From an uncultured virus (IMG/VR IMGVR_UViG_2061766007_000922) (lineage: Duplodnaviria > Heunggongvirae > Uroviricota > Caudoviricetes), in the IMG/VR virus record IMGVR_UViG_2061766007_000922: a stretch of 64,000 nucleotides of DNA. The stretch is one strand, 5' to 3'. The translations under genes and the position numbers were made by a program. Below are positions 10,128 to 28,750 of the stretch, one piece after another. Position 1 is the first letter of the stretch. Each line of letters begins with the position of its first letter. Below the pieces are notes generated by a model, which did no database searches, had not been told where the DNA came from, and saw only the letters and a program-made list of their open reading frames with translations.

Positions 10128-12386
10128 TTAGAAAAGTTCGTCGCCGCTTGCTTCCAGCGTCCGTTCCGCGCTTTCCAGGTTCTTCACCGCCTGCCGGAAA
10201 TAACTTTCCTTCAATTCGCAGCCAACGAACTGGCGCCCCATGGGCACGGCGCAGTATCCTTCGCTTCCAATTCCCATGAACGGGCTGAAAACAAGGTCGC
10301 CTGGCTTGCTCCAAAGTTGCAGGGCGCGTTCAATTACGTCAAGTTGCAGCGGGCAAATGTGCTTTTCGTCCTTTTCCTCGCGTGCGCTTTCCTTTTGCAG
10401 CGTGCGCGAAGCCCTAATGTCCATCCACACCGGGCTGGCGTAGCGCTGCCAAATTTCAATGGAATTTCGCGTCTTGTCTGCACCAAGTTCGGGCGGGTTT
10501 TCACCAACGAAACGGGTAAGTTCGCCTTCAATGCGGTCGGCGTTTTCGCCCGGCTTGCGCATGGTCACAAGGTAGTCGGGTATTCCGTTTCGGGAAATGG
10601 AACTGTCCTTTACAAGTTGCTTGTGCAGCAGGCCGATGGCCTTCGTGCGCTGCATGGCGGTCACCGGGTCCTTCCAAATGGTGACCTCGCTATGGTAAAT
10701 CCACCCGCATTCCGTGAAGAGCCGGATAAGTTCGCCACGGAAATCGCTAATGCCAATGAAGCCGTCCCGCGCCTTTGTGGTGGGCAGGTTCATGCAGTGG
10801 AACGAAACAAGCCTGCCCGGCTTTGTTATGCGGAAAAGTTCCCTTACAATGAAGCGGAAGTGTTCAATGAACTGGTCCGTGGTGTCGCAGTTGCCAAGGT
10901 CGCGCACGGAGTTGGAATAGGTGTAAAGGCTTGCAAACGGCGGGCTGAAAATGCTGAAGCCCACGGAATTGTCCTGCATTTCCTTGATAAGTTCGCAGGT
11001 GTCCCCCAGGTACGCGGTGTAGTTCTTGCCCCTTGCGCATTCTTGCATATACGTGTCCTCCATTTTGGCGGTTTTGTTTAGGTTCGTGTTTATGGTGCAG
11101 TTCGCAATCATGCAGTCCAGCATCTTCTTGAAGTTTTCGCCCTTGCGCACAATGTTCTCAAAAACAAAGCGCTCCTCGTTAGCCATTACAACCTGCACCG
11201 CCACCGGGCAGCGCTGCCCGAAGCGCCAGCACCTGCGGACGGCCTGGTAGTACATTTCGTAGGAATGGGAAACGCTGGAAAAGATTACGTTGTGGCAATT
11301 CTGCCAGTTCATGCCGAACCCGGCAATGGAAACCTTCGTGATAAGCACGCGGTACTTGCCGGAGGCGAAGCCAAGCAGGCGGTCAATTTTTGCGTCTTCC
11401 TGGGTTGACCCCGCAACCTGCACGGCGCCGGGAATAAGGCGCTCCAGCATGTCGCCTTCCTCGTTGCGTTCGCACCACACAAGGAACTGCTCCCGGCTTG
11501 CGTTCACAATTTCCGCAACCCTTGCGGCGCGGGCTTCCAGGCTTGCCTTCTTGATTTGCGAAAGTTCCGAAAGCGAGCAGTTGGTCACGAACAAGTCGTC
11601 GCTTTCCAGTTTTATTCCGGCGTCCACGTAAACCGGGTCCACCCGCAGTTCGGGCAGGTTGTACCCTTCCGCGCTATACCCAATTTCGGCGGGGTTCTTG
11701 AACATGACCGCCCAACTTGCAATCCACTTCCAAAATTCGTCCTCGGCGTGCCCCTTTATTGTCCACTTGCTTGTTTCCCCGCCATCGTGGAAAAAGAACT
11801 TTGAAAGCATACATTCGCGGGTCATTACCCCAAGGAACTCGGCATGGTTGCCCAGTTCCATGTAGTCGTTCGGGCTGGGCGTTGCGGTGCAGGCCAACTT
11901 GAACGGGGTTTTTGCGAACGTTTCAATTATTAGGGTGCGCATCTTGCCGTCAAACGATTTCAAAATGCTGCTTTCGTCCAGCACCACCCCGGCAAATTCT
12001 TCCGGGTTGAACTTTGCGATTTGCTCGTAGTTGGTGATGGTGATTTTGCCCTTCTTTTTTCCGTCGCGGGAAAGCAGCACGTCAATTCCGTACTTTTTGC
12101 CCTCGGCTATTGTCTGCTCGGCAACCGCAAGCGGGGAAACGACCAAGACGTCCCCCCCACTGGGGTTGTTTGCAACCTGCCAAGCCCACTGCAACTGCAT
12201 CATCGTCTTGCCAAGGCCGCAATCGGCAAAAATGGCGGCTTTCCCCAGGCGCAGCGCCCAGCGGACGACATCGTGCTGGAACTTGAACATTTGCGTCCCG
12301 TTCTGCGGAACAAGCGCCTCGTCAATTTCAAAGCCCACGGGCTTAAATTCAATGCTTTTGGATTTCAAAAATTCGGTATATTCCAT
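10128..12386 (-). CDS. SNF2-like helicase fused to beta-class N4/N6 DNA methyltransferase
   Basis: DCGLGKT, LDESS, TATPSPND, QAVRRCWRFGQ; then FSPPF and SPFMGIGS; ends GDELF. Confidence 0.85.
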   Translation of the reverse strand: MEYTEFLKSKSIEFKPVGFEIDEALVPQNGTQMFKFQHDVVRWALRLGKAAIFADCGLGKTMMQLQWAWQVANNPSGGDVLVVSPLAVAEQTIAEGKKYGIDVLLSRDGKKKGKITITNYEQIAKFNPEEFAGVVLDESSILKSFDGKMRTLIIETFAKTPFKLACTATPSPNDYMELGNHAEFLGVMTRECMLSKFFFHDGGETSKWTIKGHAEDEFWKWIASWAVMFKNPAEIGYSAEGYNLPELRVDPVYVDAGIKLESDDLFVTNCSLSELSQIKKASLEARAARVAEIVNASREQFLVWCERNEEGDMLERLIPGAVQVAGSTQEDAKIDRLLGFASGKYRVLITKVSIAGFGMNWQNCHNVIFSSVSHSYEMYYQAVRRCWRFGQRCPVAVQVVMANEERFVFENIVRKGENFKKMLDCMIANCTINTNLNKTAKMEDTYMQECARGKNYTAYLGDTCELIKEMQDNSVGFSIFSPPFASLYTYSNSVRDLGNCDTTDQFIEHFRFIVRELFRITKPGRLVSFHCMNLPTTKARDGFIGISDFRGELIRLFTECGWIYHSEVTIWKDPVTAMQRTKAIGLLHKQLVKDSSISRNGIPDYLVTMRKPGENADRIEGELTRFVGENPPELGADKTRNSIEIWQRYASPVWMDIRASRTLQKESAREEKDEKHICPLQLDVIERALQLWSKPGDLVFSPFMGIGSEGYCAVPMGRQFVGCELKESYFRQAVKNLESAERTLEASGDELF

Positions 12387-12675: not shown

Positions 12676-13683
12676 TTAGGAAAACGTTTCAATGGTGGCA
12701 AGGGTTAGGACATGCCACCCGTAATCTATATTGTTCGTGTCAAAGTGCTTGTCAAAGTTTTGCAGCACGCTCGCGGCCTGGCTAATGCGCGGGTCGCCAA
12801 GGTTTGCGCCGCCCTTGCCCAGCAAAATTCCGTTCGCCCAGGCCATTGCCATTTTGCCCAGGGTCATGCTGTCTTCCTTGCCCTCGGTTTTCATTTTCTT
12901 AATAAGCGTCAGCGCGTTCACAAGGCTGGGCTCCTGCCCCTTCCCGAAGCCGCCCATAAGTGCAAGGCAGAAATTTTTTGCATCCTCGCTTTCCGCTTCA
13001 ATGCAAACCTTGTTCGTGAGAACCTTAATTTGCTCTTCTTCGGTTGCAATGCCGCTCACGCTTTCCAGCGCAACCAGCAGTGCACGCGGGGAACCTTCGC
13101 CAACTTCCACAATTTTGTTAAACACGGCGTCGGAAATTTCAATGCCTTCCTTTGTTGCCACTTCGTCCACCAGTTGCATGGCTTCCTTTTTGGCAAGCGG
13201 TTCCACCTTCCACTGGGTGAGCCTGGTGGTCAACGCGCTAACCTTTTCCCCCTTGTCGCCCTTGAAGAACTTGTCCGGGTTTGTGGTGCAGAAAAAGATG
13301 TAGTTAAAGTCCGCGCCATCTTCGCAGGGTTTCAAAAGCAGGCTTTTGGCTGCGGGCGTTAGTTGCTGGCATTCGTCAATGATAAAAATGTTGTAGTTCC
13401 CAATGAGCGGGAGGCTTTTCATTGCCTCCTCCACGCCGCGCATTGCATCCACGCCGTTCAAACTGGAAGCGTTGATTTCGTCAATGTTTGCGTCCGTTGC
13501 GCCCAGGAACTCCTTGCTTACGGCACGCGCCAGGGTGGTTTTTCCGCAGCCGCTGGCGCCATAGAGCAGGATGGCGTGGTTGTGATTTTTCTTTGCAAAG
13601 TGCGCTTTAATTTGGCTGATGAGCGCGGTGTTGCCTTTCATTTCCGCAAGCGTTTGCGGGCGGTGTTTTTTGTAAAGCGACAT
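12676..13683 (-). CDS. dnaX: Clamp loader AAA+ ATPase (DNA pol III gamma/tau-like)
   Basis: MSLYKKHRPQTLAEM, GASGCGKTT, IIDEC, LLKPCED, FCTTN, GSPR. Confidence 0.85.
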   Translation of the reverse strand: MSLYKKHRPQTLAEMKGNTALISQIKAHFAKKNHNHAILLYGASGCGKTTLARAVSKEFLGATDANIDEINASSLNGVDAMRGVEEAMKSLPLIGNYNIFIIDECQQLTPAAKSLLLKPCEDGADFNYIFFCTTNPDKFFKGDKGEKVSALTTRLTQWKVEPLAKKEAMQLVDEVATKEGIEISDAVFNKIVEVGEGSPRALLVALESVSGIATEEEQIKVLTNKVCIEAESEDAKNFCLALMGGFGKGQEPSLVNALTLIKKMKTEGKEDSMTLGKMAMAWANGILLGKGGANLGDPRISQAASVLQNFDKHFDTNNIDYGWHVLTLATIETFS

Positions 13684-13703
13684 GTTTGTTTTTCCTTTTT
13701 GGT

Positions 13704-13937
13704 TTAAATAATTTCGCAGTTAAGGTTTATTTTTCTAATTGCGTTTGTTGAAATTTCCGGGCACCCGTTTTTAAAAAACCAGTAGCGGCAAAAGTCACAA
13801 ACTTCCTTCTGCATGGCCTTGTAGTTTTCTTCCGTCGCCTGCTGGCTTTCCCATCTTTTTAAAATGGTGTAAACCCCGGCTTCGAGCGTTTCTTGTTCAG
13901 CGGCGTCCGCTGCAATAAAAATTCTTTCTTGTTCCAT
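13704..13937 (-). CDS. Hypothetical protein (probably leaderless)
   Basis: ATG lies 5 nt after a TGCTATAAT element. Confidence 0.55.
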   Translation of the reverse strand: MEQERIFIAADAAEQETLEAGVYTILKRWESQQATEENYKAMQKEVCDFCRYWFFKNGCPEISTNAIRKINLNCEII

Positions 13938-13955
13938 GCCTTATTATAGCAAATG

Positions 13956-14327
13956 TTAGCAAGTCGCATTCTTTGCAGCCTTGCGGGCGGAGCGGCGTGT
14001 ACGCCTTATTTTGTGGTCCCATGTTTCTTCTATTACCATGTGCTTATTCGCACGGGCAACCGCTGCAATATAATCAACCCCAAGGCGCGTCCAGCAAACC
14101 TCCCGCACCCTTTCCGAATATTCAAAAATGCCCTTTTTGCGCAAGCCCTCAATGATGCCGCCTTGTGCGCCGCCCCGGTAAATTGAACCGGGGTTTACGC
14201 GGAGTTTGCGGTGGTGCCATCCGATGAGATTTGGTGTCGCTATTTGGTACGCCGCCCACGCAAGCACACGAATTTCTTCAAGCGTGCATTCTACTCCGTA
14301 AAATTTCAGCCGTGGTGATTTTGCCAT
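13956..14327 (-). CDS. Hypothetical protein
   Basis: RBS aaggag; 123 aa. Confidence 0.6.
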   Translation of the reverse strand: MAKSPRLKFYGVECTLEEIRVLAWAAYQIATPNLIGWHHRKLRVNPGSIYRGGAQGGIIEGLRKKGIFEYSERVREVCWTRLGVDYIAAVARANKHMVIEETWDHKIRRTRRSARKAAKNATC

Positions 14328-14342
14328 TTTGAAACTCCTTAT

Positions 14343-14774
14343 AAAATGGTATGGGCGCGGGCGTTGGTATCAGTTTCCAACCAGCCGCCCGCGCCCTAAC
14401 GATAGCGCTCTCGCGTTAGCCAACGCACCGTCGCTCGGTGGTGCATTCCCGCCCGGTATTTCGGACCCGGTGTCGGCTTCCTATTTGTGGGCAAGCAACG
14501 TTCCCAAGGGGTTCACCATTTGGAGGCGTTGGGTCGATGCGTCGCACTCCAATCATTTCACCCGTAACTTTTGGCGGCTTGTTTACTTTCGGGGCAAGTA
14601 TGAACCAGCCGTAAAAATATAGCCCTAATTTGTTCGCCGTACTAGGCAGCTCTTTTCCAAATGGTTCCTTGCTGGCAGCTAACCAACAAATTTTTCACTT
14701 TTGTACTAGGAGCCACTTTTCCGGCGCGGAGTTCCCTTGCAGTTAACAAGGCTCCAAAAACCTTTTTACACCAT
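14343..14774 (-). ncRNA. Candidate ~430-nt structured non-coding RNA / long leader
   Basis: Own TGCTATAAT promoter (14783-14775); no minus-strand ORF; consecutive hairpins; tandem covarying motif ending UAGUAC. Confidence 0.55.
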
Positions 14775-14802
14775 ATTATAGCAAAGTGCGTGCAAGTGCT
14801 TT

Positions 14803-15021
14803 TTATACGCGCACCGCCATAAAAAGTTCACCAGGCTGGTCAACCCCGTACAGAAAGGCGCGTTGAAAATGCACCCCGTCCGGGGTTGTGCCAAATTCCC
14901 AAACGCGCCGATAAATGTATTTCGCGGTGCTAAACTTTGGGAAAAGTCCGGCTGCGCTGGCACGCTGGTAAAATGTTTCCTTGTCAACGATTTGCGGTCC
15001 TATAAAATAGCGCTTTTGCAT
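14803..15021 (-). CDS. Hypothetical protein
   Basis: MQKRYFIG start with aagga RBS. Confidence 0.5.
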   Translation of the reverse strand: MQKRYFIGPQIVDKETFYQRASAAGLFPKFSTAKYIYRRVWEFGTTPDGVHFQRAFLYGVDQPGELFMAVRV

Positions 15022-15034
15022 TTTATTTCCTTCA

Positions 15035-15640
15035 TTACCTTGTTTTCCAGGCGCCTTGCACGGGCAGCACAAGCCCGTGAAGGGTAATTGCCCGCCCCTT
15101 TTCGTCCACGCCAATGTCGGCCTGCTTTTTGGCGGCTTCGTAAAGCCCCAGGATTTCGCGCATGAACATTTCCGAGGTGAAGTTTGCCTGGCGCAGTTCG
15201 TGCAGGCTAAAAACGCGGCCTGCGGAAAATTCCAGGATGTGCCCGGTTTCCACTTCCGGCTCCCCTGCGTCCGCCACGCTTGCCTTGCACCGCAGGAAAA
15301 CGCGGATGTTTACGCTGTCGCCATGGTAGAACCTATCCAGCCCGGCACCCTGCACCCGCAGGCGTTCTTCAATGCGTTCCAGTAGGCCGTCCAGGGCTTC
15401 CCGGTATTCAAAAACCCAGGCGCACCCGCCGCAACTTTTAAAGAACCCGGCGCGACGCGTTTTGCCGCAAATGGGGCAGGCCTTGAGTTTTGGTTGCTCG
15501 CGCTCTGCAAGCCCGTAGTCGCAAAACCTTCCGCGATACATTTGCACCCGGACGTCTTTTGTTTTAATTTTTGCGCCATGCCAAACCGGGCTTTTGCAAA
15601 ATTTGGCTTTGGCAATTTTCTTTTTAAGCCTTTTGTTCAT
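15035..15640 (-). CDS. Hypothetical protein with CxxC..CxxC zinc finger
   Basis: MNKRLKKK start; CPICG..SCGGC. Confidence 0.55.
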   Translation of the reverse strand: MNKRLKKKIAKAKFCKSPVWHGAKIKTKDVRVQMYRGRFCDYGLAEREQPKLKACPICGKTRRAGFFKSCGGCAWVFEYREALDGLLERIEERLRVQGAGLDRFYHGDSVNIRVFLRCKASVADAGEPEVETGHILEFSAGRVFSLHELRQANFTSEMFMREILGLYEAAKKQADIGVDEKGRAITLHGLVLPVQGAWKTR

Positions 15641-19009: not shown

Positions 19010-20227
19010 TTAGCGGCTTGCCCTTTCGCACTGGGCATATTGTGCGCAGTTGCAGCACTTGCGGCTTGTGGAAAAGTCCCTGCCGAACTGCAACCCGGCG
19101 TGGCAACCGCCTTGAGCCGGGGCGGCTGCGGGCTGCGGCTGCTCGCTGGGGAACGTGCGCTGCGGTTGCTGCGAATACGGGTCGCGGGCAAAGTCTTCTT
19201 CCGTGAGCGGACCGCCCGGAGCGGCGGGGCTGCTGCGGAAGCCCGTGGGAGCCTGCTGCGGCTGCGGTGTCGGAGGCGGCGCGGCCTGGAAGCCAGCGGG
19301 CTGCGGCTGGGCGTAGTGCGTGGCGGGCTGCGCGGCCTGGCGGAAGCCGCCCTGCTGCCCCTGCAAGGATTGTTCGCAGGCGCGTTCAAATTCTTCCTGC
19401 CTTTGCTCCTCGGTGTATGCCTGCGCGGGCGCCTGGGTGGCAGCGGGTGCGCCGGAGTTGTACGGGTCGGGCTCGCCGCCGTTCATGACGCGCTCCATTT
19501 CTTCGTAGGTGCCAAAGTTCAAAACTTCATTCCAGGGCACGCAGCGGTCGTAAAGTTCGTCCGCCGGGAGTTCCCTGCGCGGGAAAAAGTTCACGGCGCT
19601 GGCGGAATAGTATTCGTGCCCGCCGAAGGTGTCCTTTGCGGTGTTCACCTTCACAATTCGCCCGTCCTCGTTGGGGCTTGCAAAAGGAATCGGCAGGTTG
19701 CCTTCGCTCATTGCGGTGGCCTGCGCCATCAAGCGCTGGGGGAACGCGGCTTCGCCCTTCTGCTTGGCGGCGCATTCATGCAGCAAAATGTCGCTGGTGT
19801 TTTCCGGGTTCATGTAGTAAAGGACGCGGTCCTTGGGAATGAACGGCTTGATGCGGTCCCAGTTTTCGCCGCCCTTGCTGCCGTCGTCCAGTTGTTCCTT
19901 GCGTTCGCAGCACGGGCACGGCTTGCCGATAATCTTGAGGCAAGGGTACTGGTGCGGGTGCTTGGGGTCTGCCAGGTTGGGCAATTCGTGAACGGGAACC
20001 GCCTTGTAAAACTTGTATCCGGTATCGTCCGGGTCGGTTGCGTTGTTTTTTGCCAGGAGGATGTTGAAGCGCTCTTCCTTTTCGGTCCACTTGTGCCCCT
20101 TAATGCCACGGGGAAGGTGGAAGTAGGAACGCGAGCGGTTGTTGCTTTCGCTGGCTTCGCCACGGCTAACGGCTGCGGCGTGGGAGAACTGGTTGCCGAG
20201 GTTTACCCCGGAGCGGTTAAATGCCAT
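19010..20227 (-). CDS. gp32-like single-stranded DNA-binding protein with Gln/Pro/Ala tail and Cys-rich end
   Basis: H..CLKIIGKPCPCCE Zn motif; adjacent to recombinase; strong RBS. Confidence 0.65.
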   Translation of the reverse strand: MAFNRSGVNLGNQFSHAAAVSRGEASESNNRSRSYFHLPRGIKGHKWTEKEERFNILLAKNNATDPDDTGYKFYKAVPVHELPNLADPKHPHQYPCLKIIGKPCPCCERKEQLDDGSKGGENWDRIKPFIPKDRVLYYMNPENTSDILLHECAAKQKGEAAFPQRLMAQATAMSEGNLPIPFASPNEDGRIVKVNTAKDTFGGHEYYSASAVNFFPRRELPADELYDRCVPWNEVLNFGTYEEMERVMNGGEPDPYNSGAPAATQAPAQAYTEEQRQEEFERACEQSLQGQQGGFRQAAQPATHYAQPQPAGFQAAPPPTPQPQQAPTGFRSSPAAPGGPLTEEDFARDPYSQQPQRTFPSEQPQPAAAPAQGGCHAGLQFGRDFSTSRKCCNCAQYAQCERASR

Positions 20228-20334
20228 AGTAGGCTCCTTTTGTTGGTCTAGTCTAGGATTTGGTTTAGGTCTAGGTTAAAGTAAAAAGCACACCGGAACT
20301 TCCGGCGTGCTATATTATAGCAAAACGTGCGCAA

Positions 20335-20818: not shown

Positions 20819-21094
20819 CTATTCGTCCAGCGCGGCCTTGATGCGGATGTTGAGGTGGAACTTGTAGTTGCACATTGCCTCCAACTGCTCGGCAATCGTT
20901 TTCTTGTCCGCAGCGTTGGGCGTTGCCTTGTATTCCTGCTCGGCTTCGGCAATGCGGTCGCAAAGGAAGTCGCGCTCCTTTGCAAGTTTGACCACGCGCT
21001 CGCCGTTGGTGGGTGCGGACTTCAACGAATCAAAAAATTCGGCGATGGACTTTGGGGCGTCCGGGTTCTTTTTTGTGGTTTTCTTTGTTGCCAT
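20819..21094 (-). CDS. Hypothetical protein (crAss001_48-like pattern)
   Basis: ERDFLCDRI..EQLEAMCNY..LNIRI. Confidence 0.45.
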   Translation of the reverse strand: MATKKTTKKNPDAPKSIAEFFDSLKSAPTNGERVVKLAKERDFLCDRIAEAEQEYKATPNAADKKTIAEQLEAMCNYKFHLNIRIKAALDE

Positions 21095-21264
21095 GTTGTT
21101 TTTCCTTTTTGGTTTATTGTGAATTTTCGTTTTTGGGCTTACGCGGCTTGTACGGTCCGCGCTTTTTGTGTCTGCGGTAGTATGTGCGCTCCTCGTGGCT
21201 TGGGTGTATATGCCGAACGGAAACCGGGGCGCCCTTTAGCGCTTCAAGCATTTGGCGCACTGGT

Positions 21265-21630
21265 TCAAGCGGTTGCGACCTTTTCACCAAACGCCTCCAG
21301 CAACCTGGCTTCCGCGAAGTGAACCGCGCCGGGCAGGTGCAGGCTTGCAACCATGCGGCAAAGTTCGGGGGAAAGCCTGGTTTTAAGTCCGGGCTGCTCC
21401 AGGTACCGCTTCAAGTACCTTTCCAGGCGGTCAATGTACTCTTCGTCCACCAGGGGCAGGAAGCCGCGTTGCTTGTATGCCTTAATGGTTTCGCAAAGGA
21501 GCCGCTTGTATGCCGGGCGGTCTTCTTCCTTGCCTTCGCCCGCCGCGTACCTAAAAAGCAGCGCCTGGGCGTGCGGCATAAGCGATTCCAAAAGGAAGGC
21601 GTCAAGGGTGTACGGCTTCTCGGTTTTCAC
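21265..21630 (-). CDS. Hypothetical protein
   Basis: Overlapping start/stop with neighbour. Confidence 0.5.
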   Translation of the reverse strand: MKTEKPYTLDAFLLESLMPHAQALLFRYAAGEGKEEDRPAYKRLLCETIKAYKQRGFLPLVDEEYIDRLERYLKRYLEQPGLKTRLSPELCRMVASLHLPGAVHFAEARLLEAFGEKVATA

Positions 21631-21857
21631 GGCACCACCCCGGCGCTAATGCCAAATTCCGAAACCAGGATTTCGGAAATCCGTTCCTTAAGCCTATCAA
21701 CTTCCCCGGCGCTTGGCTTGTGCCCGGTGTAGTTTTCCAGGAGGCGTTCGGCAGCATCTTCCGCGTCCAGCGGCGCGGTGTCGCAGTCGGGAGCGGTGTC
21801 GCAGTCGGGATAAAATACGTGTCCACACGCGGGGCACTCAATTTCTTCGTCGGGCAT
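21627..21857 (-). CDS. Small hypothetical protein with CPACG motif
   Basis: RBS aaggag; follows promoter at 21951. Confidence 0.55.
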   Translation of the reverse strand: MPDEEIECPACGHVFYPDCDTAPDCDTAPLDAEDAAERLLENYTGHKPSAGEVDRLKERISEILVSEFGISAGVVP

Positions 21858-21967
21858 TTTTCAACTCCTTGTAAATAGTAGCCCGCCGGGGTTGTGTTAT
21901 GGCGTTAGTTTGTGTGTCAAACTAGCATGAAGAACCCGGCGGGCTGGTTTATTATAGCAAAGTGCGT

Positions 21968-23469: not shown

Positions 23470-24342
23470 TTACTTCTTGAAAACTAAAATGTTTTGATGC
23501 AGTTTGACAAGTTTTTGGTTGTACATATTCCGCCGGGCACGAATTGCCGCAGTTCCGACCGAGTTCAAAAGAACGGCCTCGTTGTAGTAGTGCATTCCGG
23601 TTTCCATGAAGGCCTTAATTGTGTCCGGCACAAAACCAATATAATTCCCATTCTTGTCGCGTACTTCGCCAACCACAAAGCAGGCAAGCGCACCGGGCTT
23701 CAACTTGGCGCAGGCCTTTTTAATGATACTTCGGTACGCCTGCAAAAATTCCGGGTAAGGCATATTTGAAATGTCGCCTTCCAGTTCGCTATACACTTCT
23801 AGGTCTGCATAGGGCGGGCAACTGAACACAAAATCAAAACCGCCGTCAACCCCATCCAGCACCTTGTCGCTGTCACCACAAATCCACTCGGGCATGGTTC
23901 CACGTTTACAAATTTCCGCAGCCTGCTCGCGGTTGCTTTCCACCTGCTCCGGGCGAATGTCAATTCCGGTGTACTTAAAACCCAGGTGGCTGGCAACTAT
24001 GCCTCGCACGCTGCCACCAGCAAACGGGTCAAGGATTTTGCCGCCTTCCGGGCAGAACCACTTATAAAGAACTTCGCAAAGTGCAGGGTCAAAAATGGAA
24101 ATTCCTTCGTTGATGTCACCGTTTTTAATGCCGTACTTTTCGCCGAAACTGGTGTGCATACACTTGGCGTCGCGCCCAGCTTCGCTCTTTATGCCAAGCG
24201 TTTTCCAAAGGTTTGCGCGGTCGCGCCAGGAGCCGCTTTTTGTGTCAAGCACGCTAAACGGGGGCTCAATGAAATCGTCGCGCAGAATTGCGTCGGCTTC
24301 AATGGGGTTTCCAAAAACATCGTATTCTTCAAATTTTGCCAT
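23470..24342 (-). CDS. SAM-dependent amino-DNA-methyltransferase-like protein
   Basis: PPFSVLD, SIFDPALCE, LDPFAGGSVRG (motif I), FSCPPY (motif IV). Confidence 0.8.
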   Translation of the reverse strand: MAKFEEYDVFGNPIEADAILRDDFIEPPFSVLDTKSGSWRDRANLWKTLGIKSEAGRDAKCMHTSFGEKYGIKNGDINEGISIFDPALCEVLYKWFCPEGGKILDPFAGGSVRGIVASHLGFKYTGIDIRPEQVESNREQAAEICKRGTMPEWICGDSDKVLDGVDGGFDFVFSCPPYADLEVYSELEGDISNMPYPEFLQAYRSIIKKACAKLKPGALACFVVGEVRDKNGNYIGFVPDTIKAFMETGMHYYNEAVLLNSVGTAAIRARRNMYNQKLVKLHQNILVFKK

Positions 24343-27038: not shown

Positions 27039-27386
27039 CTACACCCGCAGCGCCTTCCGCTGCCGTTCCACCGGGTCAAAGGCAATGGCCTCAAGTTCGC
27101 GCAGGTGCCCGCTTTCCTTTCCGTATTCGCCCGGCGCGGGTTCCTTGTTTTTTCCCCGGTACGAATAGTCCAGCCATTTCACCAGCACGCGCCACCCGCG
27201 CCCCTGCATTTCCCTAATGACGAGCGAATGGTACCAAACCAGGCAACCCCAGGAAAGGTTATAGTACCAAGTTTTTGCCGTTGGCTTTCCCCACGGGCGG
27301 GAACGCACGCGGCAAAGCGAGGCGTGCAGGGTTGAAAGTTTTTTGTCGGGGAGTTCTTGTAAAAGTGCAGGGTGCCAAAGCCTCAT
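27039..27386 (-). CDS. Pyrimidine-dimer glycosylase/endonuclease V-like protein (TIGR02328-like), catalytic Glu position substituted
   Basis: MRLWHPALLQELP..PWGK..YHSLVIREMQGRGW..WLDYSYRG; own RBS aaaggagg, although in frame with the upstream ORF. Confidence 0.65.
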   Translation of the reverse strand: MRLWHPALLQELPDKKLSTLHASLCRVRSRPWGKPTAKTWYYNLSWGCLVWYHSLVIREMQGRGWRVLVKWLDYSYRGKNKEPAPGEYGKESGHLRELEAIAFDPVERQRKALRV

Positions 27387-28562
27387 TTCCGGCCTCCTTT
27401 GTTGCATATCAAACCGGTCTCGCCATACGTTCCAGCAGGGAAAGGTTGGTTGGTTTGTTGCCCCGCATTGGTTGCCCGGTAATTGTTGCACATCAAAATG
27501 CAATTTATAACTATGTCTTCTTTTACCATTTGCAGTTTGTTCTGCAACAATTATTTTTTCCGAATTTTGCGTTGTTTCGGCGGGTTTTGCGGGTTTCCGC
27601 CCGCGTTTTGGCTCCGGGCAGGCTTCAAAAAGTTCCTTGTGGCGGCTTTTGAAGCAGGTTTCCGCCCTGGTAAGGGCTTCTCCGCGCAGCAACTTTTCCC
27701 GCAGCGCCTGCGCCCGGTTCATGGTGCTTTCAAACGTCCCGCGTTCCCTGGCTTCCCGGCGTATTTCCGAAAGTTCTTCCTTTTGCCACGGACTAATCAC
27801 CACCTCGCCCGTTTCGGCGTCGTAGTACCTGCAAAGGAGTTTCAAAATGGCGCCCGCAGCGCCCTGCTTTAGACGGTCGTTCGCTCCAATCCAGCGCCAA
27901 ACGAACGCTTCCTGCTCGCCCCTTGTGGGGAGTTCCGCAATGCCCGCGTCCACAATTTGCTGGGCAATTTCGCGCCGCGCCTTCCGGTCGCTCCACCCCC
28001 TGCGCCTGCTGCGGCAATCGTAGCCCGGCATATTTACAACAATTCGCTCCGCAGCCCCAAGGCCTGCCCGGTTTAGCGGGCGCCAGGTTGCCCCGAGGTG
28101 GTTTTTAACAACCCCGAAGAAGTCCTGGGCAAGCGTGCCGATTTTCCTTATGGTTTCCCGGTCGTTTAGGTTGGAGTAGTGTTCAAGTTCGTCCTCCACC
28201 CGCAGCCGCACGGCGTCCCGGTTTAGCAGGCGCCCGGTCACAAATTCCGCAAGCAAGCCCTGCCAAACGCAGGAACGCACCAGTTTCATCATCGCCAGGT
28301 GGCTGAACCTGCACACCTGCAACTTTCCGTCCGTTTTCTTGAACCAGTGCTTGAAGTAGCAGGTATATTCGTCGTGTTCCGTGCGGACCCCTTCGTGCCA
28401 TAACTGGGTCGTGCAGGGCGATTTTTCAAGCCCGTTTTCGTCCCAACTTGCAACGACTTCGTCGCACTTTAGCGTCCTTTTAAGTTCTTCAACGCGGAAG
28501 CGCAGCCGCTCCGCCGCTTCCTGCCACAACTGGGCGGAAACGCAAGTAATCAAGGCCTTCAT
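27387..28562 (-). CDS. Hypothetical (possibly replication-related) protein, in frame with the downstream endoV-like gene
   Basis: Long ORF, first gene of the leftward arm. Confidence 0.5.
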
Positions 28563-28706
28563 TTTGAAGCCCCTTTGGTGGTTTGGTATTTGGTGGAAAT
28601 TTTATAAAGCAAAAGTTCGCCTCCAGTTCGGTGTAGCCAACGGCAGCGCTGCTACACCGAACCGAGGCTAAATGTTATGACAAGGCCGTCGCCCTGCTTG
28701 CCCCAT

Positions 28707-28750
28707 ATTATAGCAAAGGAAAAATTCTTTGTAAAGGGTTCTGCTATAAT
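28707..28750. promoter_or_regulatory. Divergent extended -10 promoters at the strand switch
   Basis: TGCTATAAT on minus (28715-28707) and plus (28742-28750). Confidence 0.75.

Follow-up and report, generated by a model that had tools for sequence, protein, structure and literature searches.

Directly upstream of a gene for a 123-aa protein, in the replication module of an uncultured phage, lies a stretch of about 248 nt that appears to encode a conserved structured RNA; the evidence for this is good, but thin in that it comes from two lineages. Because this core is tightly linked to the gene that follows it, we favour the reading, at a probability of roughly 0.45, that it acts as a cis-acting regulatory leader RNA of a new family. 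An earlier note on the window (by which we mean the whole 64,000-nt stretch analysed) had proposed a novel phage structured RNA at this position and had seen its heart in a tandem covarying motif at 14755-14639. Conservation, compensatory changes, the lack of an Rfam match and a promoter all speak for the first part of that proposal; the heart, however, was misplaced, and the finding centres not on the tandem motif but on the 3' core (14590-14343), which had been summarised as five more hairpins. Where the note had thought of a scaffold, a decoy or a tandem aptamer leader, the close linkage of core and gene speaks rather for action in cis. The features to which we refer are the following.

End at 14803, minus strand: 72-aa ORF, the upstream neighbour of the leader
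14775-14785, minus strand: phage promoter of the extended -10 type, TTTGCTATAAT, identified from motif counts; likely start site near 14768
14591-14768, minus strand: variable 5' leader with both units of the tandem motif, delimited by shuffle tests and comparison with the homologous loci L015 and L011
14616-14624, minus strand: weak promoter-like site, GGCTATATT, two mismatches from the phage consensus, read from the sequence; possible start near 14610
14343-14590, minus strand: putative conserved structured RNA core, ~248 nt, from L015 homology, compensatory changes and covariance model R1
14353-14396, minus strand: terminal hairpin, an 11-bp GC stem plus an inner 4-bp helix capped by a conserved UGGAAA loop, pair probability 1.00
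14324-14349, minus strand: small start-codon hairpin, in which CCAUUUU (14349-14343) pairs with AAAAUGG (14330-14324)
13956-14327, minus strand: 123-aa ORF, the RNA-linked gene, starting at 14327

The phage itself is tailed, roughly 60 kb in length and equipped with its own replication genes, its gene set including a UvsX-like recombinase, a clamp loader, helicases, a DNA polymerase, a DnaB-like helicase, methyltransferases and a terminase. Part of the window was present in 20 of the 24 sequencing rows listed, from 11 studies, and the run labels give bovine and sheep gut and wastewater as the habitat. On the minus strand, about 475 nt separate the end of the 72-aa ORF (14803) from the start of the 123-aa gene (14327). 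No sense-strand ORF longer than 46 aa occurs in this leader region and, by our own reading of the variant tables, the leader variants found among relatives are not synonymous-like with respect to the antisense ORF.

Among close relatives, a scan of metagenomes returned one near-identical locus, a contig (L011) whose protein is 96% identical to that of the window and which differs at 82 of 1319 aligned nucleotides (94% identity). The differences fall as follows.

Upstream ORF: 30/219
Promoter stretch: 0/34
5' leader: 4/129
3' leader (14639-14343): 1/297
123-aa ORF: 13/372
Beyond the ORF: 33/246

Set against the two flanking ORFs, the RNA carries 5 differences in 426 nt compared with 43 in 591 (Fisher p = 1.6e-6), and these substitution counts point to purifying selection on the RNA among close relatives. 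A genome scan likewise returned one near-identical locus, a 1.6-kb contig binned in a MAG (L037), with seven changes in the RNA; C14391G in this contig breaks a pair of the terminal stem. The protein family was not found in the 399 genomes scored from the class of that MAG. A contig from run X15 also keeps the region, with at least six RNA changes and at least 11 ORF changes among the rows listed.

Might the low divergence reflect no RNA function at all? The locus could be a recently exchanged block of DNA on which covariation has arisen by chance or through optimisation of the alignment, or it could work at the DNA level, as inverted repeats bound by protein. In keeping with an exchanged block, the low-divergence stretch of L011 includes the 123-aa ORF (3.5% compared with 13-14% in the outer flanks). 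Within that block, however, the divergence of the core is about a tenth of that of the ORF (1/297 versus 13/372), and further observations bearing on this reading come from a more distant lineage.

Scanning IMG/VR with an alignment of the protein (A3) uncovered two contigs, L014 and L015, with a protein 31% identical to that of the window. The RNA directly upstream of the L015 gene is 63% identical to the core over ~248 nt, with a local score of 88 as opposed to 17.5 +/- 2.5 in shuffles, and between window and L015 the core has invariant stretches of 9-19 nt. Note that L014 and L015 are identical in the aligned stretch; the comparison is one of two diverged lineages, the first made up of the window, L011, L037 and X15, the second of L014/L015. 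Applied to a four-row alignment of the core, RNAalifold gave 69 pairs in 9-10 helices. The consensus helices, all on the minus strand, are these.

14579-14576 with 14421-14418
14574-14568 with 14508-14503
14563-14560 with 14512-14509
14556-14545 with 14528-14515
14499-14490 with 14481-14472
14470-14462 with 14455-14448
14447-14440 with 14429-14422
14414-14411 with 14402-14399
14396-14380 with 14368-14353

Between window and L015, 18 of the 69 pairs are kept through two-sided changes and 5-6 through one-sided changes, and 10 are broken. Sliding the partners by one to three columns left between zero and four two-sided changes, and 500 shuffles gave 4.6 +/- 1.8, none of them reaching 18. Because the structure had been derived from the same alignment, we also refolded 200 column-shuffled two-row alignments: these yielded 7.4 +/- 2.1 two-sided changes (maximum 13) compared with 16 observed, and a consensus energy of -25.5 +/- 4.5 compared with -62.9. 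All 18 compensatory pairs come from one comparison between lineages, on the alignment that also supplied the structure. Single-sequence energies are less telling: on L015 the consensus structure reaches -40.3 kcal/mol against an MFE of -91.8, and the MFE of L015 is no better than that of shuffles (z = -0.59). Sense and antisense alignments fold equally well (-79.6 and -80.7) and, for that reason, the choice of folded strand rests on the promoter, on the direction of the gene and on the counts of G.U versus A.C cells in the alignment (9 versus 3, by our own count).

The reading without RNA function draws on the same data, in that the covariation derives from a single independent comparison, the two strands fold equally well, and the outer 8 bp of the terminal stem make up an inverted repeat conserved in sequence. 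Nonetheless, the 18 two-sided compensations exceed every control, the RNA remains 63% identical in a phage whose proteins are 31-39% identical, and nested long-range helices would not be expected of DNA operators. We therefore regard the absence of any RNA function as quite improbable, and return to the core as a structured RNA.

The 11-bp GC stem described in the earlier note is confirmed: 14396-14386 pairs with 14363-14353 at a probability of 1.00 and forms the outer part of the last consensus helix. In L015 its outer 8 bp are identical, and inner pairs change from G-C to A-U and from U-A to A-U. No canonical terminator is listed on the minus strand at the element, where the U-run begins 7 nt past the terminal stem, and no recognisable terminator/anti-terminator pair was found there. 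Nor does the RNA resemble a catalogued family, as the earlier note had already surmised. An Infernal-type search of the 64-kb window against Rfam 15 (4227 models) gave no match at the gathering score and, at E <= 10, a single chance match (mir-1323) outside the element; the same models gave no match on 14320-14620 and only a tRNA on L015 1400-2050. Judged by these searches, the RNA would be new relative to Rfam 15. A full-text literature search, assessed from its listings, returned general rumen-virome papers and no description of the RNA.

The core is attached to one gene. RNA and family protein always co-occur, with the RNA directly upstream and on the same strand in the window, L011, L037 and L015/L014, and covariance model R1 (176 positions) finds exactly one copy each in the window, L011, L037 and L015/G007. 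The window holds no further copy, its best other match to the model scoring 13.6 bits (E 0.035), and the model finds none in the whole records G002-G005 or in locus L005. RNA, family protein, a 70-77-aa ORF and the clamp loader follow one another in this order in both window and L015; the clamp loaders of the two phages are 39% identical, and the 77-aa ORF of the window and the 70-aa ORF of L015 show no likeness. In both lineages the core ends at most 3 nt before the SD sequence. A cis-acting leader is thus matched in two respects, by compensatory changes between two lineages and by the constant place of the RNA before one gene family, with RNA and gene on one strand and, as shown for the window's lineage, behind a promoter of the phage family.

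Upstream of the RNA, L015 carries a DNA polymerase gene and, just before the RNA, a tRNA-Arg(ccg) together with a terminator-like hairpin and other hairpins. In L011 (3116-4376) and in run X15 (joint 13683/13757) an extra 1.0-1.26 kb lies between the 77-aa ORF and the clamp loader, and in L011 this segment contains a tRNA-Leu(tag); ARAGORN lists no tRNA or tmRNA in the window. The slot near the 77-aa ORF, the clamp loader and the RNA is a collector of tRNA genes and small accessory ORFs.

Outside the two lineages the element was not recovered. The close relatives L004-L008 (G002-G005 and the record behind L005) gave no match to RNA or protein by blastn and tblastn, and BLAST over the four whole records G002-G005 did not find the element. 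In relatives with clamp loaders 77-81% identical, among them a complete genome, the slot is occupied by different small ORFs; because these close relatives are without both RNA and protein, the element is dispensable for this type of phage. Against 50,697 phage records, neither blastn of the region in 'distant' mode nor tblastn of the window and L015 proteins gave a match. IMG/VR motif scans returned 21, 10 and 7 stretches, all of which, beyond the window and the L014/L015 contigs, were chance matches in coding DNA; an exact 23-mer scan returned the window's own contig only, and a scan with P0030 gave no match.

Transcription of the element would begin at a promoter that the earlier note had identified correctly: TGCTATAAT is present at 14783-14775 on the minus strand, one of 13 exact copies in the window.

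Minus strand, exact copies of TGCTATAAT: 13951, 14783, 20322, 21959, 24376, 27034, 28715
Plus strand, exact copies of TGCTATAAT: 28742, 30912, 32318, 34473, 35679, 40036

With at most one mismatch allowed, the longer motif TTTGCTATAAT occurs 12 times where 1.09 matches are expected, a number reached in none of 100 shuffles. Exact copies of the shorter motif, often with TT before and AT after, mostly sit 25-50 nt ahead of start codons; the copy at 14783 lies ~450 nt from the next ATG. It is of the extended -10 type and has no -35 element, which is why a generic promoter scan missed it. The promoter is unchanged in L011 and L037, and the bases just upstream of it vary. The same motif is found in the relatives L004-L008. 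The promoter family is demonstrated for the window's lineage only. At 14616-14624, GGCTATATT might serve as a second promoter, as its position fits the 5' limits of the RNA-library contigs described below (14603 and 14573).

Other copies of the motif have surroundings of their own. Those at 28715 (minus) and 28742 (plus) stand back to back where the minus- and plus-strand gene blocks diverge, and a ~150-nt leader with GC-rich inverted repeats (28563-28706, minus strand) separates the former from a 507-aa ORF (27039-28562) that has no PHROG match. Right after the 20322 promoter, at 20228-20313 (minus strand), a terminator-like GC hairpin followed by a U-run precedes a 405-aa ORF (19010-20227) and could act as an attenuator. 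A leader of ~100 nt at 21858-21950 (minus strand), containing the long-range inverted repeat CCCGCCGGG ... CCCGGCGGG, precedes an ATG at 21857; the stretch 20985-21959 behind this promoter copy proved to be coding past the ~100-nt leader.

Between promoter and core lies the tandem motif to which the earlier note had given pride of place. Its letters and coordinates were reported correctly (unit 1 at 14755-14703, unit 2 at 14684-14639), and the units do share GGAAAAG.GCU.CCUAGUAC, 64 nt apart. The units, as a pair of three-way junctions, could be imagined as the functional heart of the RNA, be it as a tandem aptamer, a decoy or a repeat-type antitoxin RNA; type III toxin-antitoxin loci have a superficially similar layout, in which a promoter, repeats, a strong hairpin and a small ORF follow one another. 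However, no direct repeat in the region scores better than an imperfect one of ~21 nt, which is absent in L015 and whose score is matched by 7 of 200 dinucleotide shuffles; a ToxIN-like system would have tandem near-identical repeats and an endoribonuclease toxin, and the protein here has no PADLOC match. The units also fold no better than shuffles: unit 1 alone adopts a fold other than the one proposed (z = -1.67), unit 2 alone gives z = +0.15 and both together z = -1.02. In the full fold, moreover, a competing hairpin that pairs 14690-14682 with 14676-14668 has a probability of 0.98. In close relatives, G14721A (in the UCCG/CGGA stem) and A14662C break pairs proposed for the units, and U14715C turns a G.U into a G-C pair in another, long-range helix of the MFE fold. 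Similarity between the 5' leader and its counterpart in L015 is not significant, the observed score being reached by 19 of 300 shuffles, and the region of the units (14755-14639) is the least conserved part of the element. The tandem covarying motif is not supported by these comparisons, and we consider a functional heart in the units highly improbable.

Two lesser parts of the earlier description concern the same stretch. The 5' and 3' ends had been said to pair through AUGGUGU and AUACCAU; AUGGUGU (14774-14768) comes after the -10 element but ahead of the probable start site (near 14768), and is therefore probably absent from the RNA, which makes the pairing doubtful. The element had also been said to retain AGCT and TCGA sites avoided elsewhere. 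The avoidance holds for AGCT, of which the window has 48 copies where 163.7 are expected; the two in the region (14648 and 14677) fall in the non-conserved 5' part; TCGA has one copy in the region, but its avoidance is only mild (ratio 0.62). Other palindromes are likewise strongly under-represented across the whole window, with 18 GATC observed and 68.9 expected, and 209 GGCC observed and 425.1 expected. The gene complement of the phage includes at least two DNA methyltransferase domains (10128-12386 and 23470-24342). As a whole, the region folds somewhat better than shuffles (z = -2.91, with 1 of 100 shuffles as good).

Is the core transcribed? Four runs were examined over 13600-15200, two of which are RNA libraries from different studies, and each of these two has one contig in this interval, at 14302-14603 and 14373-14573. 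Both coincide with the core: the shorter (201 nt) lies wholly inside it, and the longer (302 nt) reaches 26 nt into the ORF. By rough arithmetic, random placement would match this pattern a few times per thousand. The contigs have a depth of ~5.6x, from which strand, ends and level cannot be read, and the libraries may contain DNA; we treat them as a hint of expression. No RNA-library contig covers 14604-14768 or the body of the ORF, which is not evidence of absence.

The gene behind the RNA encodes a protein without a match in Pfam, PHROG, PADLOC or NCBIfam. A search of 1.84 billion representatives returned 12 relatives at E <= 0.001, most of them 32-41% identical by the search's own measure (alignment A3). 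The AF2 model, with a pLDDT of 72.8 (41.6 with only three sequences), has a long basic C-terminal helix. Its matches to MarR-type winged-helix structures (Foldseek E 0.06-0.4, best 0.057; VIA Z 6-7.8) are at background level; the model suggests a winged-helix-like protein, and the ESM Atlas offers unnamed clusters only. The last 75 residues recur (91% identical) at the end of a longer product, P0003 (261 aa), which may be a fusion or a miscalled ORF.

Together, contigs and protein raise an alternative to a leader acting in cis, namely that the core is a stable non-coding RNA that acts in trans, forms a ribonucleoprotein with the basic, winged-helix-like protein and is released by termination or processing after the GC hairpin and U-run. 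Under this scenario it would make sense that the RNA-library contigs cover the core only, that a conserved AUACCAUUUU comes after a 3' hairpin of high stability, and that RNA and protein, the latter with its long basic helix, always travel together. In L015, furthermore, a tRNA gene and a terminator-like hairpin precede the RNA, and phage tRNA regions, such as that of T4, hold other stable RNAs. Several observations fit this scenario poorly. With 7 nt between stem and U-run the hairpin is no canonical terminator, and in neither lineage does a spacer or separate promoter intervene between the RNA and the SD sequence of the ORF. The RNA (63%) is far more conserved than its supposed protein partner (31%), and the ends of the RNA are not something that contigs can reveal. 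A trans-acting RNA is thus possible but doubtful.

The position of the core, promoter-proximal and within the replication module upstream of the clamp loader in two phages whose clamp loaders are 39% identical, might instead suggest that the transcript serves replication or read-through, either as a put/nut-like antitermination RNA or as an origin transcript of the ColE1 RNA II or T4 R-loop type working with a winged-helix initiator. The succession of long structured leader and small basic protein is reminiscent of lambda pL-nutL-N, replication initiators are often winged-helix proteins, and RNA and protein behave as an exchangeable cassette. Yet with a promoter copy at 13951, between the 123-aa gene and the clamp loader, read-through would be unneeded. 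As for an origin, the core has a G+C content of 0.61 and, in alignment A5, neither an A+T-rich unwinding stretch nor iterons, and the cumulative GC skew is monotonic, without a turn at 12-18 kb. A complete close relative does without the element, and there is no match among the Rfam 15 models, whichever antitermination and primer families these may include. On balance we find a role of this kind unlikely.

This leaves the cis-acting leader as the reading we prefer, and there are a number of ways in which such a leader might work. Transcription would start at the phage promoter at 14783-14775, and perhaps also at the weaker site near 14620; the transcript would cross the poorly conserved 5' stretch and then form the ~250-nt multi-helix domain of 14590-14343. 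This domain would bind something conserved and thereby set either translation of the downstream gene or read-through into it. Its partner might be found among small molecules, host components or, as the product of the gene itself, in the 123-aa protein. We infer the cis action, the binding partner and the switch mechanism, and the evidence on mechanism is only suggestive. That the partner is invariant is proposed because the loops and junctions of the core are more conserved than the accompanying protein, as is usual where an RNA recognises an unchanging ligand or host machine, for example in riboswitches.

The nearest candidate for a switch is the small hairpin that holds the start codon in its stem, with the SD sequence AAGGAG (14340-14335) in its loop. 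It has the same architecture and almost the same energy in both lineages (-4.8 kcal/mol in the window, -4.9 in L015). Both of its strands are conserved in sequence, so that it is without covariation, and in L015 its z is -0.05; as an output switch it is only a hint.

Taking the argument one step further, the 250-nt core might be a new class of RNA, riboswitch-like or else bound to the ribosome or RNA polymerase, that senses a ligand or the host machinery and times expression of a replication-module regulator in uncultured gut phages. Here the invariant loops CCGAAAUAC, ACCGAG, GGCUAACG and UGGAAA would form a conserved binding pocket, in phages whose proteins are ~30-40% identical. We put this forward as a tentative idea. 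The catalogue of structured regulatory RNAs from phages is, to our knowledge, short, and uncultured phages of the gut or rumen have contributed next to nothing to it. The present element is large, more conserved than the protein that accompanies it and fixed in place in a replication module. Sensing of a metabolite or host machine would make it a new class of RNA and a handle on the timing of replication genes; binding to the product of its own gene would make it one half of a new RNA-protein pair, for a protein family that is without annotation. Either way, the alignment-ready motif and its covariance model make a concrete target that can be tested cheaply.

How does the element compare with known systems? 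ToxI-like arrays of type III toxin-antitoxin systems share with it a promoter, repeated units, a strong hairpin and a small ORF, but the repeats here are neither near-identical nor conserved, and the protein has no defence-family match. With the ROOL and GOLLD RNAs it has in common its location in phage DNA, a structured length above 200 nt and, in relatives, the proximity of tRNA genes; the core, however, has only a half to a third of their size, keeps strictly to one protein-coding gene and has no match to ROOL, GOLLD or any other Rfam family at E <= 10. ColE1 RNA II and the T4 R-loop transcripts are likewise promoter-driven structured transcripts in or next to replication functions, from which our element differs in having no A+T-rich unwinding element or skew inflection and in being absent from close relatives. 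In processive antitermination, as known from the lambda N leader with nutL and from the HK022 put RNAs, the similarity lies in the succession of promoter, long structured leader, small basic protein and replication/recombination genes; against it stand the much larger fold here, a protein predicted to be winged-helix rather than disordered, and another promoter after the gene. The remaining class of comparison consists of riboswitches and of protein-binding mRNA leaders, such as those of ribosomal-protein genes and the translational operators of phage T4. Unlike these, the core matches no Rfam family and has no terminator/anti-terminator pair, and at ~250 nt it is long compared with riboswitch aptamers. 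Like them, it is promoter-proximal and multi-helical, it combines invariant loops and junctions with covarying stems, and it sits directly before a ribosome-binding site, with a small hairpin at the start codon.
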